Assembly (NCBI GenBank): GCA_963781615.1
Contig: CAWAGI010000007.1
Span: 87,652 to 151,651 of the forward strand
DNA length: 64,000 nt
Source: an uncultured Actinomycetes bacterium
Lineage (GTDB): Bacteria > Actinomycetota > Acidimicrobiia > IMCC26256 > JACDBD01
Reading direction: 5' to 3'
Part shown: positions 51,832 to 64,000 of the stretch, piece by piece
Position numbering within the stretch: the stretch's first letter is position 1
Layout of the letters: the number at the start of each line of letters is the position of its first letter
Translations under genes and position numbers: made by a program
Notes under the pieces: generated by a model
Databases searched by the model: none
Seen by the model: the letters and a program-made list of their open reading frames with translations, nothing else
Told to the model about the DNA's origin: nothing

Positions 51832-53110
51832 TTGGAATCGCTCTTCGATCGGGCGCTGGCGCGCATTCCCGGTGGAGTGAATTCCCCGGTACGCGCGTTC
51901 GGTGCGGTCGGAGGCGAACCGTTCTTCGTCGCCCGCGGCGAAGGCGCATACGTCGTCGACACCGACGGACGGCGCTACGTCGATTATGTGCAGTCGTGGG
52001 GTGCGTCGATCCTCGGGCACGCGCATCCGAAGGTCGTCGAAGCTGTGCAGCGCGCCGCCGCCGACGGCACGTCGTACGGCGCGCCGACGACGTGCGAGGT
52101 GGAACTGGCCGAAGCCATCTGCGAGCGGGTCCCCGCGGTCGAAAAGGTGCGACTCGTCTCGTCGGGGACCGAAGCGGCCATGACCGCGATCCGGCTCGCA
52201 CGCGGCGCGACCGGCCGGTCGAAGATCGTCAAGTTCGCCGGCTGCTACCACGGTCACCTCGACGCCCTGCTCGTCGCGGCCGGGAGCGGCGTCGCGACGT
52301 TCGGGCTCCCGGGCAGTGCCGGGGTCACCGAGGGCACGGTCGCCGACACGATCGTCGTGCCATACAACGACGCCGACGCGGTGGACGAGCTGTTCGCCCG
52401 TCTCGGCGGCGAGGTGGCGGCGGTGCTGGTCGAACCGGTGGCGGCGAACATGGGCCTCGTTCCCGCCGGCGACGCGTTCCTCGCCGCGCTCCGTCGCGGC
52501 TGCGACGAGCACGACGCCCTGCTCGTCTTCGACGAGGTGATCACGGGCTTCCGGGTGGGGCCGGCCGGCGCGCAGGGGCTCCTCGGCGCGTCGCCCGACC
52601 TGTCGTTGTTCGGCAAGGTCGTCGGCGGCGGGCTCCCGCTCGCCGCGGTCGGCGGACGCGCCGACGTGATGGACGAGCTCGCCCCGGTCGGGCCCGTGTA
52701 CCAGGCCGGCACGCTGTCCGGGAACCCGCTCGCCACCGCCGCCGGGCTCGCCGCGCTCTCGCTGCTCGACGACGATGCCTACGCGCGCCTCGAGGCGATC
52801 GCGACCCGCCTCGCCGGGGGCCTGGCCGAAGTGCTCGACGGCGCCGGCGTGACCGCACAAGTGCCTCGAGTCGCAAACGCTGGTCGGGCTCTTCTTCGCC
52901 GACCGCCCGGTGCGGAACTACGACGACGCGCACGCCGCCGACCACAAGGCGTACGCGTCCTTCTTCCACGGCTTGCTCGACCGGGGCGTCTACATCGCAC
53001 CGAGTGGCTACGAGGTGATGTTCCCGAGCCTCGCCCACGGCGACGTCGAGCTCGACCACACTTTCAGTGCCGCGACCGATGCGCTGCCGCGGCTCACCGT
53101 CGGCGGCTGA
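51832..53110 (+). pseudogene. hemL: glutamate-1-semialdehyde 2,1-aminomutase, frame broken near 52872 as sequenced
   Basis: [31 protein letters not shown] and [11 protein letters not shown] are in ORF 51832... After GVTAQVPR the next frame gives [55 protein letters not shown]..., with a stop at 53108-53110 (ORF 52910..53110). Confidence 0.85.
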
Positions 53111-53223
53111 CCCGCAGCGCGCCCCGTTCGCGCCGATCTGAGCGGTTTCGGGCGGTAGACGGGGCGCGGTCGGTTGCCTCATCATGCCTGCAAGGCACGA
53201 CCCGGCAACGGATCGAGGCCAGC

Positions 53224-53889
53224 TTGGACGGCGGGACGCGCGTCTTGATCGTCGACGACCACGCCATGCTGCGCGACGCCATGCGCGTGGCGCTCGAGCT
53301 TGCCGGCCACGACGTCATCGGCGAAGCCGGCAACGGCAACGAAGCGCTGCATCTCGTCGCGGAGCTCCGGCCCTCCGTGGTCCTGATGGACGTGTCGCTT
53401 CCCGGCCTCGACGGGATCGAGGTCACCCGGAGGTTGTGCGCACACGACGCCGACCTCCGTGTCGTCATGGTGACGATGCACGCCAACCCGGCGCTGGTTG
53501 CGCGAGCGGTTCGCGCCGGAGCGTGCGCCTACCTCACGAAGGACTTCGCCATGCAGGAGGTCGTGTCGACGGTGGAGAAGGTCGCCGCCGGGGACGTCGT
53601 GCTGTCACCGAACCTGGCGGGCTCCATGCTCCGGGAGCTCACCGCTCCCGACGACGTCAGGCATGACCTGATCACGAAGCGCGAAGCCGACGCGCTCCAG
53701 CTCCTCGCCGACGGGTACTCGACGCACGAGGTGGCGTCGCGCCTTCTCGTGAACGACCGCACCGTCTCCCGCGACCTGTCGTCGGCCTACGCGAAGCTCG
53801 ACGCCCGGCACCGCACCGAGGCGATGGTCGACCGGGTGCACTGGGGAATCATCGCCCGCGAGGTCTCGTCGGCCGCGGACGGGCAGTAG
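53224..53889 (+). CDS. NarL/FixJ (LuxR-type) two-component response regulator
   Basis: TTG 53224 in the tail of ORF 51832..53889. Receiver domain [13 protein letters not shown]...[13 protein letters not shown]...YLTKD and a LuxR HTH ([30 protein letters not shown]). No adjacent histidine kinase. Confidence 0.8.
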
Positions 53890-53890
53890 T

Positions 53891-54130
53891 TCAGCGCTGC
53901 TGTTCGCGCTCCTGCGCCGCTTCGCGGCGCCGGCGAACTCGGTCCATGGCGAACAGCACCGCGAACGTGACCCCGACGAGAGCGGCGAACAGCACGAAGG
54001 CGAGCGCGCCGCCTCCGTTCTCCTTCCCGGCGTCGACGAGCTGCTGGGCGCCGGCAGGGGAGGCCACGAGGACGAGCGCGACGGTCGACGAGACGGCCAG
54101 CACCAGAAGGTCGCGGAGGCGACGGGTCAC
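53891..54130 (-). CDS. small secreted/C-terminally anchored hypothetical protein, last gene of the bc cluster
   Basis: GTG 54128-54130 follows GAGGAGG with 6-nt spacing. Sequence VTRRLRDLLVLAVSSTVALVLVASPAGAQQ..., then a hydrophobic helix ALAFVLFAALVGVTFAVLFAM and a basic tail. It starts 11 nt after the upstream stop. Confidence 0.55.
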   Translation of the reverse strand: MTRRLRDLLVLAVSSTVALVLVASPAGAQQLVDAGKENGGGALAFVLFAALVGVTFAVLFAMDRVRRRREAAQEREQQR

Positions 54131-54141
54131 GGTGATCCTCC

Positions 54142-54972
54142 TCACGTCCGCGCCGGAACGGGCGCCGGACCGCCCGTCTCCTGCTGCCGCGCCCGCTCGG
54201 CTTCGTCCCGCTCCCGCCAGTGGAGGCCGAGCAGACCGAGGCCGAAGAGCACGCCGGAGGCGAGGAAAGCGAGGATGGGCGGCAGCCGCAGCTGACCGAG
54301 ATCCTTGGTCAGCACCACGAAGCCGTTCTTGTCGGAGGTCGGGTCGCAGACGGGCTTCGGGGGTGGCACGCCGAACGGCGTGTTGACGGGCTGCACCGCG
54401 CACACCTCGACCACCGCGACGAGCGGCTTGTGGGTGAACTGGAAGTCCAGGAACTCCGGGTCGCTGCCGCCGATCTCGTACGTGTTGACCGTCTGGTAGT
54501 CGGTCACCTTGTCGAACTTGGCGAACTTGTTCTGCTCCGGGGTGGGCTTCAGGACGGCCGTCGGCTGAAGGGTGACGAGGCGTGCGTCGACGGCGGCCTT
54601 CACGTTCGCCGCCTCGATCGGGTCGACCTTCTCCTTCTTCGTGAGCTTCTTGGCCTGCGGGTACTTGATGGCGTCCGTCTTGCTGACGAACTGCTGCACG
54701 TTCCACGCGGGGATGCGGCCCTTCAGCGTGTTGAGCGGCGACGACGTGGTGATCCACAGCGTGCTGAGGATCACCATGAACCCCGCGAGGCCGGTGAAGG
54801 CGACGAGGAACCCGAGCCGGGCACCGAGGTTCGTCCCGAGCAGCAGGTAGATCGAGCCGCAGAACAGCCCGATGCCCGCCACGACTACGAGGATCCCGAG
54901 GATCGTCGGGTACCAGAGGTCCTTCGGGATGTTCTCGGTCGGCTGCGCCTGGGCGAGGAGGGACGTGATCAC
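54142..54972 (-). CDS. hypothetical membrane protein of the bc cluster
   Basis: 276-aa ORF with N-terminal hydrophobic helices, a roughly 150-aa extracytoplasmic domain and a C-terminal helix. It follows the dihaem cytochrome c gene after a 19-nt gap. No family recognised. Confidence 0.6.
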   Translation of the reverse strand: MITSLLAQAQPTENIPKDLWYPTILGILVVVAGIGLFCGSIYLLLGTNLGARLGFLVAFTGLAGFMVILSTLWITTSSPLNTLKGRIPAWNVQQFVSKTDAIKYPQAKKLTKKEKVDPIEAANVKAAVDARLVTLQPTAVLKPTPEQNKFAKFDKVTDYQTVNTYEIGGSDPEFLDFQFTHKPLVAVVEVCAVQPVNTPFGVPPPKPVCDPTSDKNGFVVLTKDLGQLRLPPILAFLASGVLFGLGLLGLHWRERDEAERARQQETGGPAPVPART

Positions 54973-54991
54973 TTCTTCCGGCTCCCGTGCA

Positions 54992-56059
54992 TCACAAGCC
55001 CCGCTCGTAGTCGACGATCGCCTGGATCTGGTCCTTGGTCAGGGTGTTGCCGAAGTGGGGCATGCGACCGGAGGAGATCCCGCGCGTGCCGTACGCCTCG
55101 TTGGCGGGCTTGCCCGCCGTGATCCAGTCGACGTGGTCCTGGACGCCCGTCGGGCCCGCGAACTGGCGCACCGTGTCGCCGCCAGTGAGGTTGGGCCCGA
55201 ACGCCCCACCGCCCTGCGGACCGGGCAGCGGCCCGGGCCCGGGGTTGCTCGGGTCGTAGAAGGACCAGTTCTTGGTGTGGCACCGCGCGCACTGCAGCTG
55301 GAAGAGCAGCTCCCCGTCGCTCTTGCCCGGGTTCTTCGCCCGTGCGTCGGCGAGCTGCTTCGTGAACCGGTCCTTCGCCTTCTCAGGAGAGATCTGGATG
55401 CTCTCGACGTAGTTGACGACGTCGTCGATGCCCTGCTGGTTGAGCACGCCCTTGCCGCTCGCAACCCCCCACGGGGGCATGGGCGTCCCCGGTCTGCCGT
55501 ACGTGACGATCTGCTTCACCTCGTCCTTCGAGTACCGGAGCATCTCGACGTCCAGGGGCGGCGCCTGCCACGTGACCTGGACCGGGAGGCAGTAACTCGG
55601 CGTCTCGGCCGTGACCGCGGCCGCCGGGTCGCAGCGGGCGTCGTCCGACTTGATCGTGTAGTTCGTGCTGCCGCCCGAGCCGTCGACGCCGTGGCAGTTC
55701 GCGCACAGGAGCGAACGCGTCGGGTCGTAAGCCTTGCTCTGGTCGTTCGCGAACAGGATCGCACCCCGTTCGATCGACTGGTCCTTGAACTGCTTCTCCG
55801 CGTTCGCCTCTCGGGACGGCTCGAACACGTAGTACGCGAAGAGCGTGAGCGCGATGAGCGCGGTCGTGAGGAGCGCGATCCCGAGCACGCGCTCGAGCTT
55901 GCGGCCTTCGAGCTCCTCGTCGGGCAGGAACGGGGTCAGGTTCTGCGGCGGGCGCGGCTCCGGGTTCCGGCGCAGGCTGACGACCCGCCACAACAGGATG
56001 ATCCCGATGACGGCGAACGCCGCCAGGTTGACGAGGATGATGACGAGTCGGAGGTTCAC
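54992..56059 (-). CDS. qcrC: membrane-anchored dihaem cytochrome c (QcrC-like)
   Basis: Two haem c sites, CANCH and CARCH, and two N-terminal hydrophobic helices. Confidence 0.85.
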   Translation of the reverse strand: MNLRLVIILVNLAAFAVIGIILLWRVVSLRRNPEPRPPQNLTPFLPDEELEGRKLERVLGIALLTTALIALTLFAYYVFEPSREANAEKQFKDQSIERGAILFANDQSKAYDPTRSLLCANCHGVDGSGGSTNYTIKSDDARCDPAAAVTAETPSYCLPVQVTWQAPPLDVEMLRYSKDEVKQIVTYGRPGTPMPPWGVASGKGVLNQQGIDDVVNYVESIQISPEKAKDRFTKQLADARAKNPGKSDGELLFQLQCARCHTKNWSFYDPSNPGPGPLPGPQGGGAFGPNLTGGDTVRQFAGPTGVQDHVDWITAGKPANEAYGTRGISSGRMPHFGNTLTKDQIQAIVDYERGL

Positions 56060-56071
56060 GGCGTGTGGACC

Positions 56072-56926
56072 TCACACACAGGGCGCCCCCTCGGCCGTCT
56101 GCCCCGTGGTGTCCGTGCCGATCGGCGGGCCCTGGACGAGCGACGACGCCGCGGTGTCGACGGTGATCTGCCCACCCGACACCTCGAGCACGAAACGGTC
56201 GAGACCGCGCGGCGCGGGCCCGCCCTTCTTCTCGCCCACGCGGTTGTACTTCGAGCCGTGGCATGGGCACTCGAACCACTGCGACGACTCGCACCACGGC
56301 ACCCGGCAGCCGAGGTGCACGCACTTCTGGTACAGGGCGACGTACCCCTTCTCCATGCCGGCGACGATGCGGGGGTCGTACACCGTCTTCGCCTTGGCGA
56401 TGTCGTCCTCCGGGTACGGCTGGATGTACGTGCGGGCGGCGGCGTTGTAGAAGGGCAGCTTCTTGTCGAACTGCTGCTTTGCGTCGTCCTCGGACCCGAC
56501 GACGATCTTGGCGCCGAACCCGCCTGCGCTTCCCGGCCACAGGAAGCCGAGCATCGCCGCTCCCATGCCGGCGGCGAAGATGCCCAGCCCGGCGAGGATC
56601 CCGCGGTTGAAGAACTGGCGCCGGGTGAGCCCGATCTCCTCCTCTTCGACGGGCACGTACTCGACCGGCGCGCGGGCGCCGGCCGGCTCGAGCGCCTGCC
56701 GCGACTCGTCGGCGTGCGCCCGTGCATCCTCGTCGAGCTCGGCCACGCCGGTGCCCACCGTCGCGGGAACGCGCGACTCCTTCTCCGGCATCGAGCGGTC
56801 GCTCTTGCGCGTCTCGCGGCTGAGGCGTCCGGTGGTCGAGCGACGCCGACCCTCGGCCACGATCGCGACGGCGGCGAGGATCAGTAGTGCGGGGATGGCG
56901 ATGATGAGAACAGTCGAAGAGTCCAC
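56072..56926 (-). CDS. qcrA: Rieske 2Fe-2S subunit (QcrA-like)
   Basis: Rieske boxes CVHLGC and CPCHGS, a twin-arginine-like LTRRQFF, and N-terminal membrane helices. Confidence 0.88.
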   Translation of the reverse strand: MDSSTVLIIAIPALLILAAVAIVAEGRRRSTTGRLSRETRKSDRSMPEKESRVPATVGTGVAELDEDARAHADESRQALEPAGARAPVEYVPVEEEEIGLTRRQFFNRGILAGLGIFAAGMGAAMLGFLWPGSAGGFGAKIVVGSEDDAKQQFDKKLPFYNAAARTYIQPYPEDDIAKAKTVYDPRIVAGMEKGYVALYQKCVHLGCRVPWCESSQWFECPCHGSKYNRVGEKKGGPAPRGLDRFVLEVSGGQITVDTAASSLVQGPPIGTDTTGQTAEGAPCV

Positions 56927-56940
56927 GAACTACAAACGCC

Positions 56941-57825
56941 CTACAGGTCGAAGAAGATCCCGTTGTTCCACGGGAACACGAAGTTGAAGCCCGGGCCGCG
57001 GAAGAACGAGCCGATGATGACGAGCACGGCCCAGAGCATCAGGAACAAGGTGAAGATCGAGATCGCGAACTTCCGGTCGGTCGGCGCGTGCGACGGGTTC
57101 TTGTCGATGAACGGCGCGACCCCCAGCAGGAACAACCCCATGCCGGGGATCGTCACTCCCGCGATCATCGGGTGGAACATCGTGAGCAGCTCCTGGAGGC
57201 CCAGGAAGTACCACGGCGCCTTCGACGGGTTCGGCGTCTTGTTGAAGTCGGCCAACCCGAGCAACGGCGCGCGCACGAGCGCCGAGAACACCAGCATGCC
57301 CGCCGTCACGACCAGCACCGCCGCGAACTCGATGACCAGCAGGTGCGGCCACACGTGGACCTTGTCCTGCGCCTCGGCGCGGGTCTGTTGGATCGAGCCC
57401 GACTTGACGACCGTGAGCAGCCGCTGCGTGTGACCACCGGGACCGGTGGCCGTCGGGGTGGGCTTCGGCGCGGTCGCGGTGGCGGTGGCCCCCCCGCCGG
57501 TGGTGGCGGCGGCCGCCGCCGCCGGTTCCGCCGCTCCGCCGTCGCCACCGTCGCCAGCGAGTTGCGCCCGCCGGCGCTTCGACCGCTCGAGCAGGTGGGC
57601 GGGAACGCCGCTCGCAGCAGCAGCGGCGGCGGTGTCGTCGCCTTCGGCTGAGGCGGGCGCGGCCGCGGCGGGTGCCTCCGCGGCCGTCTCGCCGGCGGCT
57701 TCCGCCGGTGCCTCGGGCGCGCCGGCCTCGGCGCCTTCGTCGCCCTCCTCGCCCGGGACGGGGAGACCCAGCGCCTTGCGCCGTTCCCGGCTGCGGCGGA
57801 GCAGGTGCTCGGGGACTTCGGTCAT
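56941..57825 (-). CDS. cytochrome b C-terminal domain / subunit IV-like protein with a 140-aa N-terminal extension
   Basis: The C-terminal 150 aa have three helices and a Qo-site PEWY-type motif, APWYFLGLQELL. The N-terminal part is Ala/Glu/Pro-rich, with a duplicated basic motif. Confidence 0.8.
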   Translation of the reverse strand: MTEVPEHLLRRSRERRKALGLPVPGEEGDEGAEAGAPEAPAEAAGETAAEAPAAAAPASAEGDDTAAAAAASGVPAHLLERSKRRRAQLAGDGGDGGAAEPAAAAAATTGGGATATATAPKPTPTATGPGGHTQRLLTVVKSGSIQQTRAEAQDKVHVWPHLLVIEFAAVLVVTAGMLVFSALVRAPLLGLADFNKTPNPSKAPWYFLGLQELLTMFHPMIAGVTIPGMGLFLLGVAPFIDKNPSHAPTDRKFAISIFTLFLMLWAVLVIIGSFFRGPGFNFVFPWNNGIFFDL

Positions 57826-57841
57826 CGAACCCTTCTCATCC

Positions 57842-58636
57842 TTACAGCGGCCCGGAGAGCCCGCCGTCCTTGCGGACTCGCCAGAAGTGCACGGCCATGA
57901 AGATGACGATCACGAACGGGAGGAGTAACACGTGCAACGTGTACCAGCGTAAGAGGGTGTCGTTGGATATCTCAGACGAGCCGAGCAGCACGAACTTGAC
58001 CTGGGAGCCGAAGACCGGCGTGTAGCCCATCATGTTCGTGCCCACGGTGACCGCCCACAGCGCGAGCTGGTCCCACGGCAGCAGGTAGCCGGTGAACGAG
58101 AGCAGCAGCGTCAGCGTCAGCAGGATGACGCCGATGACCCAGTTGAACTCGCGGGGTGACTTGTAGGCGCCGTGGTAGAAGACCCGGCTCATGTGCAGGA
58201 ACACGGTCAGCACCATGAGGTGCGCCGCCCATCGATGCATGTTCCGCACGATCGAGCCGAACGTCACCGCCGTTTCCAACGTCTGCACGGTGTCCCAGGC
58301 CGACGCCGCCGTCGGGCGGTAGAAGAACATCAGGAAGATGCCGGTGATGGTCAGCAGGATGAACAGGAAGAACGAGATGCCGCCGAGGCAGAGCGTGTAA
58401 GAGACCTTCACCGCGTGCCGCTTCACCTTGACGGGGTGAAGGTGGTACAGCACGTTGTTCATGATCACGTAGGAGCGGTTGCGGGGACTGTCCGTGTACC
58501 CGCGCCGGAACACCGAGCCCGGCCGGAAGATCGACGTCCACGCCTGCGAGCCGCGAACCTTCTGGTCGGCCGTCTCGAGGGCCTTGGTGAGCCGCCGCTC
58601 CCCGTTCCCGTTCGCTCCGTTACCTCGCTTGGCCAC
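57842..58636 (-). CDS. qcrB: cytochrome b N-terminal domain (b6-like, four-helix) protein
   Basis: Haem-ligand histidine pairs in RNMHRWAAHLMVLTVFLH and YTLHVLLLPFVIVIFMAVH. The protein ends after helix D, so cytochrome b is split. Confidence 0.85.
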   Translation of the reverse strand: MAKRGNGANGNGERRLTKALETADQKVRGSQAWTSIFRPGSVFRRGYTDSPRNRSYVIMNNVLYHLHPVKVKRHAVKVSYTLCLGGISFFLFILLTITGIFLMFFYRPTAASAWDTVQTLETAVTFGSIVRNMHRWAAHLMVLTVFLHMSRVFYHGAYKSPREFNWVIGVILLTLTLLLSFTGYLLPWDQLALWAVTVGTNMMGYTPVFGSQVKFVLLGSSEISNDTLLRWYTLHVLLLPFVIVIFMAVHFWRVRKDGGLSGPL

Positions 58637-58724
58637 GAACCCGTCTCCTAAGTAAGCGAGCTTCGCTTCGCTGCGCCGTCTGCTCGTCCCTGCTTCGGTG
58701 CCGCGTCGAGTGTCGGACGGTCCA

Positions 58725-59138
58725 TCAGAACCTCACGCCGTAGGAGTAGCCGTGGCGGTCGGTGCGGGTGTGGGGGTCGCCTTCGGCGATCTGTTGGGAG
58801 ATCTTGCCGAGGATGATGACGCCGGTGGGGCAGCGGTCGACGCAGAGGGCGCAGCGGGTGCAGACGTCTTCGTCGACGATGAAGGCGACGTGGTCGCTGG
58901 GGTCTTCGCCGGGCTGTTCGGTGTCGGTGGCATCCGAGATGGCGTCGACCGAGACCATGTGGATGCATTTCCAGGGGCAGATGTCGACGCAGCCTTCGCA
59001 GAGGATGCATTCGGCCTGGTCGATGTGGAGGAACTGCTTGGGCTTGACCGCCGAGGTGAGGAACGCCGGGTCGACTTCTTGGAGCTCGTAGTCGGTGACG
59101 AAGTCCGGCATCGGCGGGTTCGCGTCGGTCTTGGCCAT
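58725..59138 (-). CDS. 2x[4Fe-4S] ferredoxin-domain protein
   Basis: CILCEGCVDICP and CTRCALCVDRCP cluster motifs. The gene sits 88 nt upstream of the cytochrome b gene on the same strand. Confidence 0.8.
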   Translation of the reverse strand: MAKTDANPPMPDFVTDYELQEVDPAFLTSAVKPKQFLHIDQAECILCEGCVDICPWKCIHMVSVDAISDATDTEQPGEDPSDHVAFIVDEDVCTRCALCVDRCPTGVIILGKISQQIAEGDPHTRTDRHGYSYGVRF

Positions 59139-59142
59139 CTCG

Positions 59143-59802
59143 TTACGCCTTCGACTTCACGGGTCGGCCGAACCGAGACGTGCGCAAGACCTTGCCCTCT
59201 TCGTCGACCGCCTCCGGCTTGGGCACGAGCCGGCTCTGCCACATCACGAACAACCGCAGGTTGAGGAGGAAGAAGACGCCGTAGATCGCCACGACGATGA
59301 AGTCGCGCAACTGCTGGTAGTTCGGCTTGATCGCGTACGTCTCGAACAGGACCTTGTCCGGCGTCCACTGCAGGTACTTGTCAGAGAACGTGATCCACTC
59401 GTGCGGGATGACGCCGTACGCCAGCGTCAAGAGGAAGAACGTTCCGACCGCGCCCGCCATGGCCTCGGCCCAGGTGGTCGGTCGGTCCTGGGGCCGCGGA
59501 TCGCGCGACACGACCATCGCCAGGGCGAGCGCGACGACCCCGAAGACGATCGTCCAGACCATGAGGATCTGGATCGCCGGGAAGAAGCCACCGATCAGGT
59601 AGCAGCCGATGATGAGCAGGATCGCGAGGGGCACACCCTGCTTCGGCTTCAGGATCTTGGTCTGGAGCGGCGGCCGGATCAGTGCGAACACGAACGCGAG
59701 CCCGATGGCGATCGCCAGCAACGAGAAGATGAGCCGCCCCGCCGGGTGCGCCCACCCGAAGAACCAGCGGTCCAGGACGCTCTGCGGAATCAGGTTGGGC
59801 AT
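59143..59802 (-). CDS. hypothetical multi-pass membrane protein, first gene of the bc cluster
   Basis: 219-aa ORF with several hydrophobic helices. It ends 4 nt before the ferredoxin start. No family recognised, and it does not resemble CtaE. Confidence 0.6.
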   Translation of the reverse strand: MPNLIPQSVLDRWFFGWAHPAGRLIFSLLAIAIGLAFVFALIRPPLQTKILKPKQGVPLAILLIIGCYLIGGFFPAIQILMVWTIVFGVVALALAMVVSRDPRPQDRPTTWAEAMAGAVGTFFLLTLAYGVIPHEWITFSDKYLQWTPDKVLFETYAIKPNYQQLRDFIVVAIYGVFFLLNLRLFVMWQSRLVPKPEAVDEEGKVLRTSRFGRPVKSKA

Positions 59803-60020
59803 GAGCCCGAGTGCCCTCCCGTCGCACGGCGCCGCGCTCCACGCCGCCGCGGCTCCGAATACGTCGTCGTGTTACCACGCTAGAGGAGGCTTGGGCACAT
59901 TGGGCAACGGGACGACACGAGGCGCGTGCACCAAGCCTTGTGAACTTGTGCGACGAGGGGTGCGTGCGACCGGTCGGGGCGCGCTGTGACACCATTCGAC
60001 GGTGCGACGGGGACGTCCTG

Positions 60021-61268
60021 ATGGCTGATCGCTTCGACGTGCTGGTGATCGGCGGAGGGCCGTCGGGCGCCGCCGCCGCGTACTGGCTCGCCCAGCGCGG
60101 GCGGCGGGTGCTCGTCGTCGAGAAGAAGCGGTTCCCCCGTGAGAAGACCTGCGGCGACGGGCTGACGCCCCGGGCGGTGCGTGAGCTCCACGACATGGGT
60201 CTCGCCGAGCCGCTGGCCGACTACCTGCGCTACGACGGCCTGCGGTCGATCGCCCACGGCGTCACGCTCGAGCTCGCCTGGCCGGACCACCCCGAGTTCC
60301 CCCCGTACGGCTACGTCATCCGCCGCCGGGAGCTCGACGAGATGGTCGCCGGCCAGGCGGTGAAGGCCGGGGCCACGCTCTGGCCGGCCGCCGAGGCCAC
60401 CGAGCCCCTGGTCGAGGGCGGCCTCGTGACGGGGGCGATCGTCCACCGCAAGGAGAGCGGCACGCGGGAGCCGGTCCGAGCCCGCTACCTCGTCGTCGCC
60501 GACGGCGCGAACTCCCGGTTCGGCCGGGCGCTCGGCGCGGCACGCGATCGCTCGTACCCGCTGGGGATGGCGGTACGCGGCTACTTCCGGAGCCCGTACC
60601 ACGACGACCCGTGGATCGAGAGCCACCTCGACCTGCGCGACCGCGACGGCAACCACCTGCCCGGGTACGGGTGGGTGTTCCCGGTGGGGGACGGCACCGT
60701 GAACGTCGGGGTCGGCCTGCTGTCGACGTTCGCGGGCTGGAAGTCCGTGAACACCAGTCACCTGATGGACGCGTTCACGGCCACCGCGCCGGCGCGCTGG
60801 GGTATCAGCCCGGAGACGTCGTGCGGTCCTCCGACCGGCGGCAAGCTCCCGACCGGCGGGTCCGTGCGGCCCGCGACCGGTCCGACGTGGGTCGTCGTCG
60901 GCGACGCCGGCGCCGCGATCAACCCGTTCAACGGCGAGGGGATCGCCTACGCCTACGCGACGGGACGGCTCGCGGCCGACTCGCTCGAGCTCGCCCTCGC
61001 CAGCGGCGACGGGCTCGCCCTGCAGCGCTACCCCGAGCGGCTCCAGGAGCTGTACGGGCTCTACTTCAAGGTTGCTCGCGCGTTCGTGAAGGCGATCGGG
61101 AACCCGGCCGTGATGCGCGAGCTCACCCGGGTCGGGATGCGCTCCCGCACGCTGATGGAGTGGGTGCTGCGGATCATGGCCAACCTGCTCCGCCCCGACG
61201 AGCTCGGCCCGGCCGAAGCCGCGTACAAAGCGTTGGCCGCGCTCGTCGCCGTCGCGCCGGAGCCGTAG
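60021..61268 (+). CDS. geranylgeranyl reductase family flavoprotein (MenJ-like)
   Basis: ATG 60021 inside ORF 59811..61268. Motifs: FDVLVIGGGPSGAAAAYWLAQRG, FPREKTCGDGLTPRAV, VVGDAGAAINPFNGEGI. Confidence 0.8.
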   Translation: MADRFDVLVIGGGPSGAAAAYWLAQRGRRVLVVEKKRFPREKTCGDGLTPRAVRELHDMGLAEPLADYLRYDGLRSIAHGVTLELAWPDHPEFPPYGYVIRRRELDEMVAGQAVKAGATLWPAAEATEPLVEGGLVTGAIVHRKESGTREPVRARYLVVADGANSRFGRALGAARDRSYPLGMAVRGYFRSPYHDDPWIESHLDLRDRDGNHLPGYGWVFPVGDGTVNVGVGLLSTFAGWKSVNTSHLMDAFTATAPARWGISPETSCGPPTGGKLPTGGSVRPATGPTWVVVGDAGAAINPFNGEGIAYAYATGRLAADSLELALASGDGLALQRYPERLQELYGLYFKVARAFVKAIGNPAVMRELTRVGMRSRTLMEWVLRIMANLLRPDELGPAEAAYKALAALVAVAPEP

Positions 61269-61345
61269 TCGCAGCTTGAGCCGCGTCGGCGGCACCGCGG
61301 TAGCCTGCGCGCGCCAGGCCACCGGAACGGTGACATGGGAGCGAG

Positions 61346-61812
61346 ATGACCGCCTACCTGCCGATCCTGACGATGATCTGTCTGGTCGTGGTGTTCATCG
61401 CGGCGTCGTTTCTCGCTCGCAGCTGCTCGGACCGCGACGGCCGACGTCGGCGAAGCAGGCGCCCTACGAGTCCGGGATCGTGCCCGAGCAGGAGCCGACC
61501 GAGCGCTTCCCGGTGAAGTTCTATCTCGTCGCGATGACGTTCATCGTCCTCGACGTCGAGATCATCTTCCTCTATCCCTTCACGACGATCTTCCGGAACT
61601 TCGTACCGGCCGCGTACGGGCTCGTCATCATGGGCGTGTTCCTGCTCACGCTGCTCGTGCCGTTCGCGTACCTGCTGTCGACGGGCGCGCTCGACTGGGG
61701 CCCCGTGCGCCGGCTCGTGGGCCGGGCGAGCGCGGGCGTGCTGCGCGCGTCGGGGAAGCCCGGTGCGCGCGGTCTTGATCCCGCCGGCGAGCGCGAGACG
61801 GAAGCAGCCTGA
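61346..61812 (+). pseudogene. nuoA: NADH-quinone oxidoreductase subunit A, frame broken at about 61421 as sequenced
   Basis: ATG 61346 gives MTAYLPILTMICLVVVFIAASFLAR. The next frame (ORF 61276..61812) continues with [52 protein letters not shown]. One base appears to be missing between them. Confidence 0.85.
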
Positions 61813-62365
61813 TGGGGCTCGACCAGGTCCCGTACTCGTTCCTCACCGGGCGACTCGAAGATCTCGTGAAGTGGGCGCGCCGCAACTCGGTGTGGCCGGC
61901 CACATTCGGGCTCGCGTGCTGCGCGCTCGAGATGATGGCAGCGGGCGCCGCGCACTACGACCTCGCGCGCTACGGGATGGAGGTCTTCCCGCGAGTCCCC
62001 GCCAGGCCGACCTCATGATCGTCGCCGGCCGAGTCAGCCAGAAGATGGGGCCGGTGCTGCGCCAGGTGTACGACCAGATGGTCGAGCCCAAGTGGGTCAT
62101 CTCGATGGGCGTGTGCGCGAGCACGGGCGGGATGTTCAACAACTACGCGCTCGTGCAGGGCGTCGACCAGATCGTGCCCGTCGACATCTACGTTCCCGGT
62201 TGCCCGCCCGGTCCCGAGACGCTCATGTACGGGATCCTCATGCTCCACGACGAGATCCGGAGCGGCGAGATCATGAAGCGGCGCGCCCGCACCAGCCACG
62301 GCGGCGCCGGCATCCAGGTCGAGCAGCGCGACGGCACCCCGGCCGACAACTTGGCCACCCGGTAG
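61812..62365 (+). pseudogene. nuoB: NADH-quinone oxidoreductase subunit B, frame broken at about 61989 as sequenced
   Basis: ORF 61812..62018 gives [16 protein letters not shown]...YGMEVF. ORF 61763..62365 continues with [38 protein letters not shown]. One base appears to be missing after EVF. Confidence 0.85.
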
Positions 62366-62391
62366 GACGGCGTCCCGAGGACCACGACACG

Positions 62392-62991
62392 ATGCCTGAT
62401 GACGACGCTCGTGAAGACGCTCACAAGAACGCCGACGCGGACGTAGAAGATGTAGAAGATAAGGAGAAGAGCGCGCCGCCTCCCCCTGACGACGAGGTGG
62501 CGGCGGCCGTCGTCGAGAGGTTCCCGGGCACGGTGTTCCACCGCTCCCACGGCCAGCCCGTCGTGTACGTCGACCGCGCGGTGTGGGCGGACCTGGGTGG
62601 GTTCCTGCGTGACGAGCAGCAGTTCACCCAGTGCGTCGACGTGACCGCCGTCGACCATCTCGTCGACGCCGCCCGGCTCTCGGTACCGGGCGTAGCGCCG
62701 GAGCGCTTCGAGGTGGTCGCGAACTTCCTCTCGCACCCCCGCAACCGGCGCATCCGGGCGATCTGCGAGGTGCCGGCCGACGACGCGTCGGTGCCGAGCC
62801 TCACCCGGACGTTCCCGGGCGTGAACTTCGGCGAACGCGAGGTCTACGACCTGTTCGGCATCACGTTCACCGACCATCCCGACCTCACCCGAATCCTCAT
62901 GCCCGACGACTGGGTGGGGTACCCGCTGCGCAAGGACGACGCCCCCGCCCGCGTGCCCGTCACGTTCAAAGAAGACCCGAGGCCGCGATGA
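62392..62991 (+). CDS. nuoC: NADH-quinone oxidoreductase subunit C
   Basis: ATG 62392 inside ORF 62092..62991. Motifs: FTQCVDVTAVDHL, FEVVANFLSH, EREVYDLFGITFTDHPDLTRILMPDDW. Confidence 0.88.
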   Translation: MPDDDAREDAHKNADADVEDVEDKEKSAPPPPDDEVAAAVVERFPGTVFHRSHGQPVVYVDRAVWADLGGFLRDEQQFTQCVDVTAVDHLVDAARLSVPGVAPERFEVVANFLSHPRNRRIRAICEVPADDASVPSLTRTFPGVNFGEREVYDLFGITFTDHPDLTRILMPDDWVGYPLRKDDAPARVPVTFKEDPRPR

Positions 62992-64000
62992 GTGAAACCC
63001 GAGACCCCACCGATGGCACCGAAGACCGGACGAAGCACGTCTTCCTCTCCGACCCGGCCCTGACCCGACTCACCGACGAAGGCTCCCAGGAGCTCGTCGT
63101 CACGGGCGGCCCCTGGCCCGAGGACGAGGCCGAGGGCGACACGATGATCATCAACATGGGCCCGCAACACCCGTCGACCCATGGCGTGCTGCGCGTGATG
63201 CTCGAGCTCGACGCCGAGACGATCATCCGCGCCAAGCCCGTCGTCGGCTACCTCCACACGGGAATGGAGAAGACGGGCGAGGAGCTCACGTACGTGCAGG
63301 GCGCGACGAACGTGACGCGCATGGACTACGCGTCGCCGCTCTCGAACGAGCTCGTGTTCTCGATGGCGGTCGAGCAGCTCCTCGACGTCGAGGTCCCGCC
63401 CCGCGCCACCTGGATCCGCATGTACCTGAGCGAACTCAACCGCATCGCGTCGCACCTGCTGTGGCAGGCCACGAACGGCCTGGACATGGGAGCGCTGTCG
63501 ATGATCATCTACGGCTGGCGCGAGCGGGAAGAGACGCTGCGGCTCCTCGAGAAGATCACCGGGCTCCGGATGAACAACAACTACATCCGCCCCGGCGGTG
63601 TCGCCGCCGAGCTGCCCGACGGTTGGCAGGACGACACACTCGAGCTCTGCAACCTCGTCGAGAAGGGGACTGCCGAGTACGACGAACTGCTCACGGGGAA
63701 CCCGATCTGGCAGGAGCGGCTGCAGGGCGTGGGCGTGATCACCACCGAGCAGGCGCTCGCGCTCAGCGCCACCGGCCCGATCCTCCGCTCGACCGGCTTC
63801 CCGTGGGACTTGCGCAAGTCCCAGCCGTGCCTCGCGTACGACGAGGTCGACTTCGACGTGATCTACACGCAGAACGGCGACTGCTACGACCGCTACCGGC
63901 TTCGGCTCCAGGAGATCCTCGAGTCGGTGAAGATCGTGCGCCAGTGCATCGACAAGATGCCCGCGGGGGACTACCGGGTACAGGACCGGAAGGTCACGCC
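62988..64000 (+). CDS. nuoD: NADH-quinone oxidoreductase subunit D (3-prime end outside window)
   Basis: ATG 62988 overlaps the nuoC stop (ATGA) and the frame stays open to the window end. Motifs: MIINMGPQHPSTHGVLRVMLELD, GYLHTGMEK, RMNNNYIRPGGV. It is absent from the ORF track because no stop is reached. Confidence 0.88.
   Translation, partial: MSETRDPTDGTEDRTKHVFLSDPALTRLTDEGSQELVVTGGPWPEDEAEGDTMIINMGPQHPSTHGVLRVMLELDAETIIRAKPVVGYLHTGMEKTGEELTYVQGATNVTRMDYASPLSNELVFSMAVEQLLDVEVPPRATWIRMYLSELNRIASHLLWQATNGLDMGALSMIIYGWREREETLRLLEKITGLRMNNNYIRPGGVAAELPDGWQDDTLELCNLVEKGTAEYDELLTGNPIWQERLQGVGVITTEQALALSATGPILRSTGFPWDLRKSQPCLAYDEVDFDVIYTQNGDCYDRYRLRLQEILESVKIVRQCIDKMPAGDYRVQDRKVT

Follow-up and report, generated by a model that had tools for sequence, protein, structure and literature searches.

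Why would an operon for a Rieske/cytochrome b complex also encode a soluble ferredoxin and three further membrane proteins, and is such an arrangement peculiar to one genome? The question is raised by eight genes on the minus strand of a 64,000-nucleotide (nt) stretch of DNA from an uncultured Actinomycetes bacterium of the class Acidimicrobiia (assembly GCA_963781615.1, contig CAWAGI010000007.1, positions 87,652 to 151,651), referred to below as the window. The operon is the standard complex III of the class Acidimicrobiia and not a single-genome oddity, and the available surveys suggest that it is often the only complex III of the class. With regard to function, the reading put forward here is that of a class-wide complex III variant in which an iron-sulfur (FeS) module on the cytoplasmic (n) side of the membrane would act as an electron port, exchanging electrons between the low-potential haems and ferredoxin-level carriers. 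A probability of about 0.5 is assigned to this reading.

An earlier note, made from the letters of the window, had described eight co-directional minus-strand genes at 53891-59802 with gaps of 4-88 nt. All of the open reading frames (ORFs) were found at these coordinates, and the gaps measure 4, 88, 16, 14, 12, 19 and 11 nt in transcription order. Every motif quoted there for the ferredoxin, cytochrome b, the subunit IV-like protein, the Rieske protein and cytochrome c was verified. Domains were searched with Pfam and NCBIfam, and sequence matches to solved structures were sought in the PDB. Pfam recognises the Fer4 dicluster, Cytochrome_B, Cytochrom_B_C, Rieske and cytochrome c domains. Third-position GC content (GC3) is 0.91-0.95 in g1-g7 and 0.88 in g8, against ~0.71 overall, and is a strong coding signal in all eight frames. 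In transcription order, the features are as follows.

59143-59802, minus strand: g1, a 219-amino-acid (aa) membrane protein with five predicted transmembrane (TM) segments and without a match in Pfam, NCBIfam or the PDB; proposed as the partner or anchor that the ferredoxin has in the membrane
58725-59138, minus strand: g2, a 137-aa soluble 2x[4Fe-4S] ferredoxin matching Fer4 dicluster families; proposed n-side FeS subunit
58637-58724, minus strand: the g2-g3 spacer of 88 nt, of which ~73-87 nt are missing from near-identical contigs
57842-58636, minus strand: g3, a 264-aa b6-type four-helix cytochrome b (Pfam Cytochrome_B, 160.6 bits)
56941-57825, minus strand: g4, a 294-aa subunit IV-like protein with three TM segments (Pfam Cytochrom_B_C, 31.5 bits)
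56072-56926, minus strand: g5, a 284-aa Rieske [2Fe-2S] protein (Pfam Rieske, 35.4 bits)
54992-56059, minus strand: g6, a 355-aa membrane-anchored dihaem cytochrome c with CANCH and CARCH; presumed electron exit to an aa3 oxidase
54142-54972, minus strand: g7, a 276-aa protein with three predicted TM segments and no family or PDB match; candidate for a conserved accessory subunit
53891-54130, minus strand: g8, a small protein of 79-82 aa with two predicted TM segments; candidate for a lineage-restricted small subunit

Relatives were collected in a scan with one genome per species and cytochrome b as the query. At least 584 were found, and the best 80 of them are all Acidimicrobiia with a cytochrome b 77-92% identical to that of the window. 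They include the cultured Salinilacustrithrix flava (L048), Aquihabitans sp. G128, and metagenome-assembled genomes (MAGs) of Microthrix and Ilumatobacteraceae. An identical cytochrome b occurs on metagenome contigs of the Joint Genome Institute with the same gene order. Synteny was assessed in 61 species-level loci with enough flanking sequence, using tblastn of the eight window proteins and ORF reconstruction. In 56 of these loci, g1-g7 are all present and colinear on one strand, an arrangement far beyond chance. The g1 gene lies upstream of the ferredoxin gene in 59 loci (median gap 3 nt), and g7 is found in 58 (median g6-g7 gap -1 nt); translational coupling is indicated by both median gaps. 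The loosest junction of the operon is that between g2 and g3, where the gap has a median of 35 nt and measures 88 nt in the window.

Across the loci, identity to the window amounts to 77-92% for cytochrome b (g3), 64-96% for the ferredoxin (g2), 47-79% for the subunit IV-like protein (g4), 41-76% for the Rieske protein (g5), 27-54% for cytochrome c (g6), 23-57% for g7 and 23-50% for g1. The ferredoxin is the second most constrained protein of the operon, after cytochrome b.

The search was extended to more divergent lineages by running the ferredoxin against 1.84 billion cluster representatives. The Acidimicrobiia family was retrieved first, followed by several full-length ferredoxins that are 32-49% identical and share the family-specific N-terminal extension. 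Four further divergent lineages, with ferredoxins that are only 32-45% identical, carry the module, and its context is readable in five places: L087 and L088, two unclassified Actinomycetota MAGs with a GC content of 0.70, L094 (GC 0.58), L095 (GC 0.665) and the short contig L096. As far as the contigs reach, the order is a two-TM protein, ferredoxin, b6-like cytochrome b, subunit IV-like protein, Rieske protein, cytochrome c and a g7-like protein. The cytochrome b of these lineages with a stand-alone ferredoxin is 64-72% identical to g3; identities to other lineages are given as ranges because BLAST and multiple alignment differ. In all five places a two-helix protein of 115-161 aa abuts or overlaps the ferredoxin gene. 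These small proteins align with the only conserved part of g1, its C-terminal ~110 aa, which comprises two TM segments and the invariant Trp111, Pro133 and an Asp; the W, P and D are invariant in the small proteins as well. The outer neighbours are an aa3 oxidase operon with CtaA/B/G in L087 and L088, the Ccm system I in L094, and ResB/CcsA, COX1 and hemL in L095. A constant inner module with changing but always respiratory neighbours points to a functional unit serving aerobic respiration. The earlier note had proposed a non-canonical menaquinol-oxidising complex and had named the co-conservation of the ferredoxin and membrane genes with the bc genes as a check; the co-conservation of g1-g7 across Acidimicrobiia and the four further lineages supports the proposal.

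The ferredoxin carries the cluster motifs CILCEGCVDICP and CTRCALCVDRCP, i.e., two CxxCxxCxxxCP signatures. Having neither a signal peptide nor a TM segment, it is expected to be cytoplasmic. Conserved extensions are present at both termini, and in the alignment profile conservation spans the protein from the first residues to the C-terminal tail, not only the surroundings of the clusters. Between lineages that otherwise share only about 32% identity, all eight cluster cysteines and the adjoining motifs show no variation. In the PDB, the top single-domain match has a score of only 27.6 bits, and NuoI scores ~24-27 bits. Apparent gene fusions of g1 with the ferredoxin and of the ferredoxin with cytochrome b (P0138, P0176, P0190, P0207, P0224 and others) were rejected as Rosetta-stone evidence, since in the alignment they have a low-complexity appearance typical of frameshifted reads.

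The g2-g3 spacer varies between close strains. An extra segment of ~73-87 nt is absent from L001-L006, in which the stop codon of g2 overlaps with the start of g3 and cytochrome b is 100% identical. The extra segment holds an ORF of 25 codons (MDRPTLDAAPKQGRADGAAKRSSLT), whose ATG overlaps the g2 stop.

Judged by its sequences, the core is a b6-type split Rieske/cytochrome b complex, consisting of a cytochrome b, a separate subunit with the Qo motif, a Rieske protein with both boxes, and a CxGG motif. Cytochrome b (g3) contains the pairs His134/His148 and His235/His250, which are 14 and 15 residues apart, as is typical of the b6 type. The best PDB match is cytochrome b6 (E 2.7e-49), with an alignment starting only at residue 78. 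The N-terminal extension of ~77 aa does not align with b6 and carries an invariant HLHP motif. CLGG at positions 83-86 corresponds to CxGG, the signature of a covalently bound haem cn/ci, and is invariant in six aligned homologues.

In chloroplasts, attachment of haem cn needs dedicated n-side factors, the CCB proteins. By analogy, g1 and g2 (and/or g7 and g8) might be assembly factors for haem cn attachment or cofactor insertion that stay outside the mature enzyme, and cytochrome c maturation genes do adjoin the module in L094 and L095. Such a role is highly improbable, as g1 and g2 show no similarity to CCB1-4, YGGT or any assembly family in Pfam or NCBIfam, and assembly factors are rarely 64-96% identical or translationally coupled within a structural operon.

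The NCBIfam model for ExtP (NF040969) scores g3 at 308 bits, above its cutoff of 290, and the ExtQ model scores g4 at 53.7 bits, below cutoff. An identity of g3 as ExtP was rejected because no ext-type operon with multihaem cytochromes and a porin surrounds the window gene. Automated pipelines likely mislabel the cytochrome b genes of Acidimicrobiia as ExtP, probably in a systematic manner, and the misannotation is flagged here.

The subunit IV-like protein (g4) exceeds the cutoff of Cytochrom_B_C (31.5 versus 20.7 bits) and carries the Qo motif KAPWYFLGLQE on a subunit of its own. A PDB sequence search with g4 gave nothing useful, the protein being too divergent to match PetD. It contains an invariant Glu165-Phe166 and begins with a cytoplasmic, low-complexity region of ~150 aa that is rich in Ala, Gly, Glu and Pro. 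Within this region, two conserved copies of P-x-H-L-L-x-R-S-x-x-R-R occupy residues 5-16 and 75-86, and a strongly conserved RLLTVVKSGSIQ segment directly precedes the first helix. These N-terminal motifs could be docking sites for the acidic ferredoxin.

The Rieske protein (g5) contains CVHLGC at position 202 and CPCHGS at 220, the latter as CPCHGSKY, in addition to an extra N-terminal TM segment and an internal twin-arginine motif, RRQFF. Its Ser225 and Tyr227 align with Ser127 and Tyr129 of Kuste4569 from the anammox bacterium Candidatus Kuenenia stuttgartiensis. Such a Ser/Tyr pair raises the potential of Rieske proteins (PMC12954380, PMC4122944), and g5 is predicted by this signature to be of the high-potential type, above +260 mV. 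Two Kuenenia Rieske proteins were measured at +303 and +335 mV, with Kuste4569 at +303 mV (Hauser et al. 2025, PMC12954380). Cytochrome c (g6) has only two CxxCH motifs, CANCH and CARCH, and two N-terminal hydrophobic helices.

By its APWY motif, split cytochrome b and Ser/Tyr Rieske protein, g3 can be placed in the APWY clade of split cytochromes b that was defined by Kao and Hunte in 2014 (PMC4122944), where CxGG was also noted. The clade ranges over delta-Proteobacteria, Chloroflexi, Nitrospirales, Planctomycetes, some deep Firmicutes and deep-branching Actinobacteria including Ilumatobacter, and the associated Rieske proteins were predicted to have mid-plus to high potentials (PMC4122944). 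As of 2014, no APWY member had been characterised in vitro or in vivo (PMC4122944). The earlier note had named the split as the layout of Firmicutes, heliobacteria and cyanobacteria; a split APWY cytochrome b was already on record for deep-branching Actinobacteria, including Ilumatobacter (PMC4122944), and the split itself is not new. No paper was found that characterises the whole arrangement.

Independent information on the ferredoxin comes from its best matches outside the family. These include proteins of ~600 aa in which the dicluster core is 41-45% identical (~65 bits in one stretch) and in which Pfam recognises Fer4_20, FAD/NAD(P) Pyr_redox_2 and a C-terminal dicluster domain. A search seeded with one of them, P0250, retrieves P0448, a 'putative NAD(P) oxidoreductase, FAD-containing subunit [Candidatus Kuenenia stuttgartiensis]'. 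All five sampled members of this flavoprotein family lie inside Rieske/cytochrome b clusters (L089-L093). L089 is the locus of Kuenenia, where the genes for a Rieske protein, the flavoprotein, cytochrome b, a subunit IV-like protein and multihaem cytochromes correspond to the published Kuste4569-4574 complex. L090, a Chloroflexota MAG, encodes the flavoprotein, a b6-like cytochrome b, subunit IV, a Rieske protein and a dihaem cytochrome c; L092 is a Planctomycetes contig, and L091 and L093 are two others. In L090, L093 and Kuenenia the flavoprotein gene is located directly upstream of cytochrome b, which is the slot of g2 in the window.

The similarity extends to the individual subunits. The ferredoxin aligns with residues 499-569 of the Kuenenia flavoprotein at 31% identity, and g3 is 49-54% identical to Kuste4571 and 57-63% identical to the Chloroflexota cytochrome b. 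His65 of g3 aligns with His43 of Kuste4571, and Arg255 with Arg247. The subunit IV-like protein is 46% identical to its Kuenenia counterpart, and KAPWYFLGLQE is present in all of these subunit IV-like proteins. By these alignments, the window subunits belong to the same lineage of complexes as the anammox-type ones. The earlier note had also held that canonical bc1/b6f complexes have no ferredoxin-type FeS subunit; for Rieske/cytochrome b complexes with cytoplasmic FeS subunits, a precedent exists in Kuenenia (PMC12954380). Its idea of a second electron route gains independent support from the apparent homology of g2 to the FeS domain of the anammox-type subunit.

In AlphaFold3 models of the Kuenenia complex, a chain of four FeS clusters connects the n-side of cytochrome b with FAD, and a b-type haem that had not been expected lies between the two cytochrome b monomers, held by His43 near Arg247 (PMC12954380). 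If this predicted extra haem is real, the window complex may hold one too, at His65 and Arg255. No Pyr_redox or Fer4_20 protein was found by Pfam in the window operon, g2 having the dicluster domain only. Given this absence of the FAD/NAD(P) module found in other phyla, and with Qi-site features intact, the ferredoxin could be bound and yet idle, a structural, protective or regulatory relic of the FeS-flavoprotein subunit on top of an ordinary Q cycle. This is a decidedly improbable alternative. Cluster cysteines that are all invariant between such distant lineages argue for selection on cluster binding, and a relic would not be expected to rank second in conservation within the operon.

The proposed electron port can be described as follows. 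The core would consist of cytochrome b with haems bL, bH and probably cn, the subunit IV-like protein, the high-potential Rieske protein, and the dihaem cytochrome c, from which electrons would pass to the aa3 oxidase. Its action as a menaquinol:cytochrome c oxidoreductase feeding aa3 follows from established knowledge of the family and from the quinone of S. flava, MK-9(H8). The ferredoxin would sit on the n-side, held by the two-helix core of g1 and probably in contact with the N-terminal extensions of cytochrome b and the subunit IV-like protein. In the complexes of anammox bacteria, Planctomycetota and Chloroflexota, its counterpart is an FeS domain within a larger protein that also contains an FAD/NAD(P) module; in the window it stands alone. 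Several lines of evidence support a bound n-side subunit: the conservation of g2 tracks that of cytochrome b; its slot upstream of cytochrome b is fixed across ferredoxin clades that share only about one third of their residues; it is tightly coupled to the two-helix protein; it is homologous to the cytoplasmic FeS domain of the sister complexes; and the g3 extension and g4 N-terminus are clade-specific conserved n-side elements that offer a potential docking site. While the genes with their motifs, homology, context and co-conservation are directly observed, a place of g1, g2, g7 and g8 in the complex as physical subunits, a wiring of the clusters to the haems and the direction of electron flow are inferred. 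The port would join bH, cn and possibly the extra inter-monomer haem on His65 to cytoplasmic ferredoxin-level carriers.

Two modes of operation can be envisaged. A Rieske protein near +300 mV acting on menaquinol at ~-70 mV would make roughly 370 mV available in the first electron transfer. According to a symmetry argument for Qo-site bifurcation (cited by Hauser et al.), the low-potential branch would then lie near -400 mV, in the range of [4Fe-4S] clusters and ferredoxins. In an outward mode, the low-potential electron of bifurcated quinol oxidation would pass through the FeS clusters to yield reduced ferredoxin, with O2 as the high-potential sink. In an inward mode, with POR and OGOR working in the oxidative direction, menaquinone at the Qi site would receive electrons from reduced ferredoxin. 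S. flava respires O2, uses MK-9(H8), and feeds electrons from sulfide into the quinone pool via SQR; in its reversed oxidative tricarboxylic acid (TCA) cycle, POR and OGOR depend on reduced ferredoxin from an unstated source, and both enzymes are reported to be nearly universal in Acidimicrobiia (2024 S. flava paper). The outward mode is attractive because it would connect these observations, namely sulfide electrons at the level of quinone, O2 as the acceptor, and the ferredoxin need of POR and OGOR. In the strongest form of this idea, the only complex III of aerobic Acidimicrobiia and several related deep-branching lineages would be a quinol-based bifurcating enzyme. One electron of each menaquinol would descend via the Rieske centre, cytochrome c and aa3 to O2, and the other would climb via the b/cn haems and both [4Fe-4S] clusters to ferredoxin, which would be reduced without a hydrogenase, Rnf or reverse flow driven by the proton-motive force. 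This stronger claim is regarded as doubtful; if true, it would account for the low-potential reductant of POR and OGOR and of the reversed oxidative TCA cycle in S. flava.

The same architecture is equally in line with an inlet only, in which the bound ferredoxin takes electrons from soluble reduced ferredoxin, supplied by POR and OGOR working oxidatively, and passes them via cn and bH to menaquinone at Qi. Complex III would then contain a ferredoxin:menaquinone reductase, like the proposed ferredoxin-to-b6f cyclic route, and there would be no bifurcating output. The reported near-universality of POR and OGOR fits this alternative, CxGG and the invariant Glu165 suggest a functional Qi pocket beside the proposed docking site, and the transfer is thermodynamically downhill, so that unusual potentials are not needed. 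It leaves a high-potential Ser/Tyr Rieske protein on a menaquinol oxidase unexplained, however, and the analogous inward route in Kuenenia was judged unlikely and energy-wasting by Hauser et al. (PMC12954380). Moreover, a nuo operon adjoins, and other ferredoxin sinks may exist. On balance, a mere inlet is rather unlikely.

Several observations weigh against the electron port. The ferredoxin lacks a membrane anchor of its own, and its AlphaFold2 model, built with a two-clade alignment of 52 sequences, reached a predicted local distance difference test (pLDDT) score of 46, too poor for fold searches. In L003, where cytochrome b is identical, similarity to the window ends exactly at the g1/g2 boundary and g1 is absent. 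Dicluster domains are all interrelated, so the proposed link between g2 and the flavoprotein rests on score ranking and shared gene position. CxGG, the invariant Glu and an intact subunit IV suggest a working Qi site, and an ordinary Q cycle without an extra port would suffice. The bifurcation model for anammox complexes is itself still a proposal (PMC12954380), and the Ser/Tyr rule predicts Rieske potentials only roughly. Finally, a ferredoxin homologue at L097:1840-3628 (39% tblastn identity to g2) lacks the N-terminal extension and is found without bc genes or g1; it adjoins a gene for a geranylgeranyl-reductase-like (GGR-like) flavoprotein and nuoABC, and a gene for an extracytoplasmic function (ECF) sigma factor follows it. 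This suggests that the ferredoxin can persist at such a locus independently of the bc genes.

The L097 locus also bears on the view that the ferredoxin does not belong to the bc complex. In this case, g1 and g2 would form a separate, tethered ferredoxin that is merely co-transcribed, with clients such as haem or menaquinone biosynthesis, the GGR-like flavoprotein or complex I. In its favour, the operon has conserved neighbours in the GGR-like, nuo and hem genes, g2 lacks a TM segment, and the junction between g2 and g3 is the loosest in the operon. This view is nevertheless considered unlikely: apart from L097, the ferredoxin gene is directly upstream of cytochrome b in every context while the outer neighbours change, the homologous domain is part of a Rieske/cytochrome b-linked subunit in other phyla (5/5 sampled), and g2 and cytochrome b are conserved in step. 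The electron port remains the preferred reading.

The other two proteins proposed as subunits are g7 and g8. The g7 protein comprises two N-terminal TM segments, an extracytoplasmic domain of ~150 aa and one C-terminal TM segment. The gene is called as 277-287 aa in other genomes, and homologues are present in L087, L088, L094 and L095. An AlphaFold2 model from the single sequence had a pLDDT of 51, with values <50 in the extracytoplasmic domain, and was too poor for fold searches. The small protein g8 has a signal-like N-terminus and a C-terminal TM anchor, and no match in Pfam or NCBIfam. Its start is ambiguous, with 79 aa in the window and 82 aa in gene calls of near-identical contigs. By tblastn, g8 was detected only among the closest relatives (14/61 loci), and in L087 a 34-aa gene with a single TM segment occupies its slot.

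The surroundings of the operon are a conserved respiratory and cofactor gene neighbourhood. A GGR-family flavoprotein gene at 59811-61268 (plus strand) is divergent from g1 and is followed by nuoA, nuoB and nuoC at 61276-64000 (plus strand); a GGR-like gene and nuo neighbours are also found in L001 and L097. On the other side of the window operon lie hemA/C/D/B/L, and hemL also adjoins the module in L087 and L095. A scan for promoters and terminators gave sites no more frequent than in shuffled sequence, and an Rfam scan of the operon and its flanks returned no match.

Several side observations concern these neighbours and individual relatives. The window's hemL, encoding glutamate-1-semialdehyde aminomutase (51832-53110, plus strand), is split over two frames with a break near 52868: comparison with the HemL of a relative places residues 3-347 in frame 1, as far as 52869, and residues 347-424 in frame 2, beginning at 52868. 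The split reflects a frameshift or a sequencing error, and the first frame runs on into the next gene, giving a spurious ORF of 685 aa. A response regulator gene of the NarL/LuxR type (receiver and helix-turn-helix (HTH) domains; ~53180-53889, plus strand) ends 1-2 nt from the g8 stop, tail to tail. In L001 and L003 it is replaced by a gene of 67 aa; close strains thus differ in what follows the operon downstream. At the opposite end, L003 carries an ArsR-type HTH gene in the place of g1 (L003:1-520), which may be a strain-level rearrangement or a chimeric contig end. In the Ilumatobacteraceae MAG L019, a cytochrome b 79% identical to g3 (L019:10001-10795) has unrelated neighbours, a large membrane protein upstream and an ECF sigma factor downstream, and represents either an orphan second copy or a mis-assembly.

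The finding matters beyond the individual operon. Acidimicrobiia are abundant in soils, oceans, lakes and wastewater, and pathway surveys score their complex III as largely absent, KEGG-style annotation being blind to it. In the supplement of the 2024 S. flava paper (PMC11697166), for instance, only 'qcrC' appears under complex III, and qcrB is scored 0 in most genomes of a comparative KEGG table covering 45 genomes. This suggests that the complex is overlooked in KEGG-type surveys and that canonical qcrCAB is usually missing. A putative cytoplasmic redox arm on a Rieske/cytochrome b complex, known as a peculiarity of anammox bacteria and thus of anaerobes, would also be present in widespread aerobes. 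The complex touches on the question of whether low-potential acceptors can be reduced through bifurcation of the Q-cycle type or whether the Qi site can receive electrons from ferredoxin, the latter having long been debated for b6f and cyclic electron flow. Salinilacustrithrix, Aquihabitans and Ilumatobacter are cultivable hosts in which a direct test could be made.

Among known systems, the closest are the complexes of Kuenenia (Kuste4569-4574 and Kustd1480-1485). They share with the window the b6-type cytochrome b, a subunit IV-like protein with KAPWYFLGLQE, a Rieske protein with CPCHGSKY, the HLHP histidine and C-terminal arginine proposed to hold an extra n-side haem, and a cytoplasmic FeS module in the cluster that appears homologous to g2. 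In Kuenenia, however, this module is the C-terminal domain of a 581-aa flavoprotein with Fer4_20 and FAD/NAD(P) domains, whereas the ferredoxin of the window is stand-alone and has a two-TM partner. Hexa- or octahaem cytochromes and an HAO-like protein are found on the opposite (p) side in Kuenenia, in place of the dihaem cytochrome c. Kuenenia further has a five-helix subunit IV and is an anaerobe, whereas hosts of the window type are aerobes, with an aa3 oxidase adjacent in relatives.

The b6f complex of cyanobacteria and chloroplasts likewise has split b6 and subunit IV, the same His spacing and CxGG, and the best Rieske family similarity is to PetC. It differs in having PEWY instead of APWY, cytochrome f instead of a dihaem cytochrome c, and plastoquinone instead of menaquinone. 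The window in turn has the g3 extension of ~77 aa and the extra g1, g2, g7 and g8, and it lacks genes for PetG/L/M/N.

QcrCAB (bcc) of Mycobacterium and Corynebacterium is an actinobacterial menaquinol-oxidising complex III as well, with an anchored dihaem cytochrome c, a multi-TM Rieske protein and an aa3 partner. In contrast to the window operon, it has a single fused QcrB with PDWY and without CxGG, and no ferredoxin subunit. The NCBIfam models for actinobacterial QcrB, QcrA and QcrC score 120.6, 25.6 and 32.6 bits on the window proteins, versus cutoffs of 500, 275 and 200.

ExtOPQ of Geobacter, the Rieske protein, cytochrome b and membrane protein encoded in extHIJKLMNOPQS, is related by the cytochrome b subfamily according to the ExtP model and by a weak ExtQ similarity of g4. 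The ext cluster encodes multihaem cytochromes and porin-like and rhodanese-like proteins, and no ferredoxin (PMC5877670); those genes are absent from the window. The PDWF-FeS clade (Kao and Hunte 2014) is a precedent for a 4Fe-4S/ferredoxin module physically joined to a cytochrome b with a Qo motif; in that clade, cytochrome b and the FeS domain form one fusion protein, the Qo motif reads PDWF, and there is no Rieske protein in the cluster. Literature searches returned no description of the stand-alone ferredoxin, of the g1 or g7 family, or of their linkage to bc genes in Actinobacteria. Compared with all of these systems, the combination of a widespread, strictly conserved stand-alone 2x[4Fe-4S] module, a small membrane partner and a g7-type subunit on the housekeeping complex III of aerobes appears to be new.

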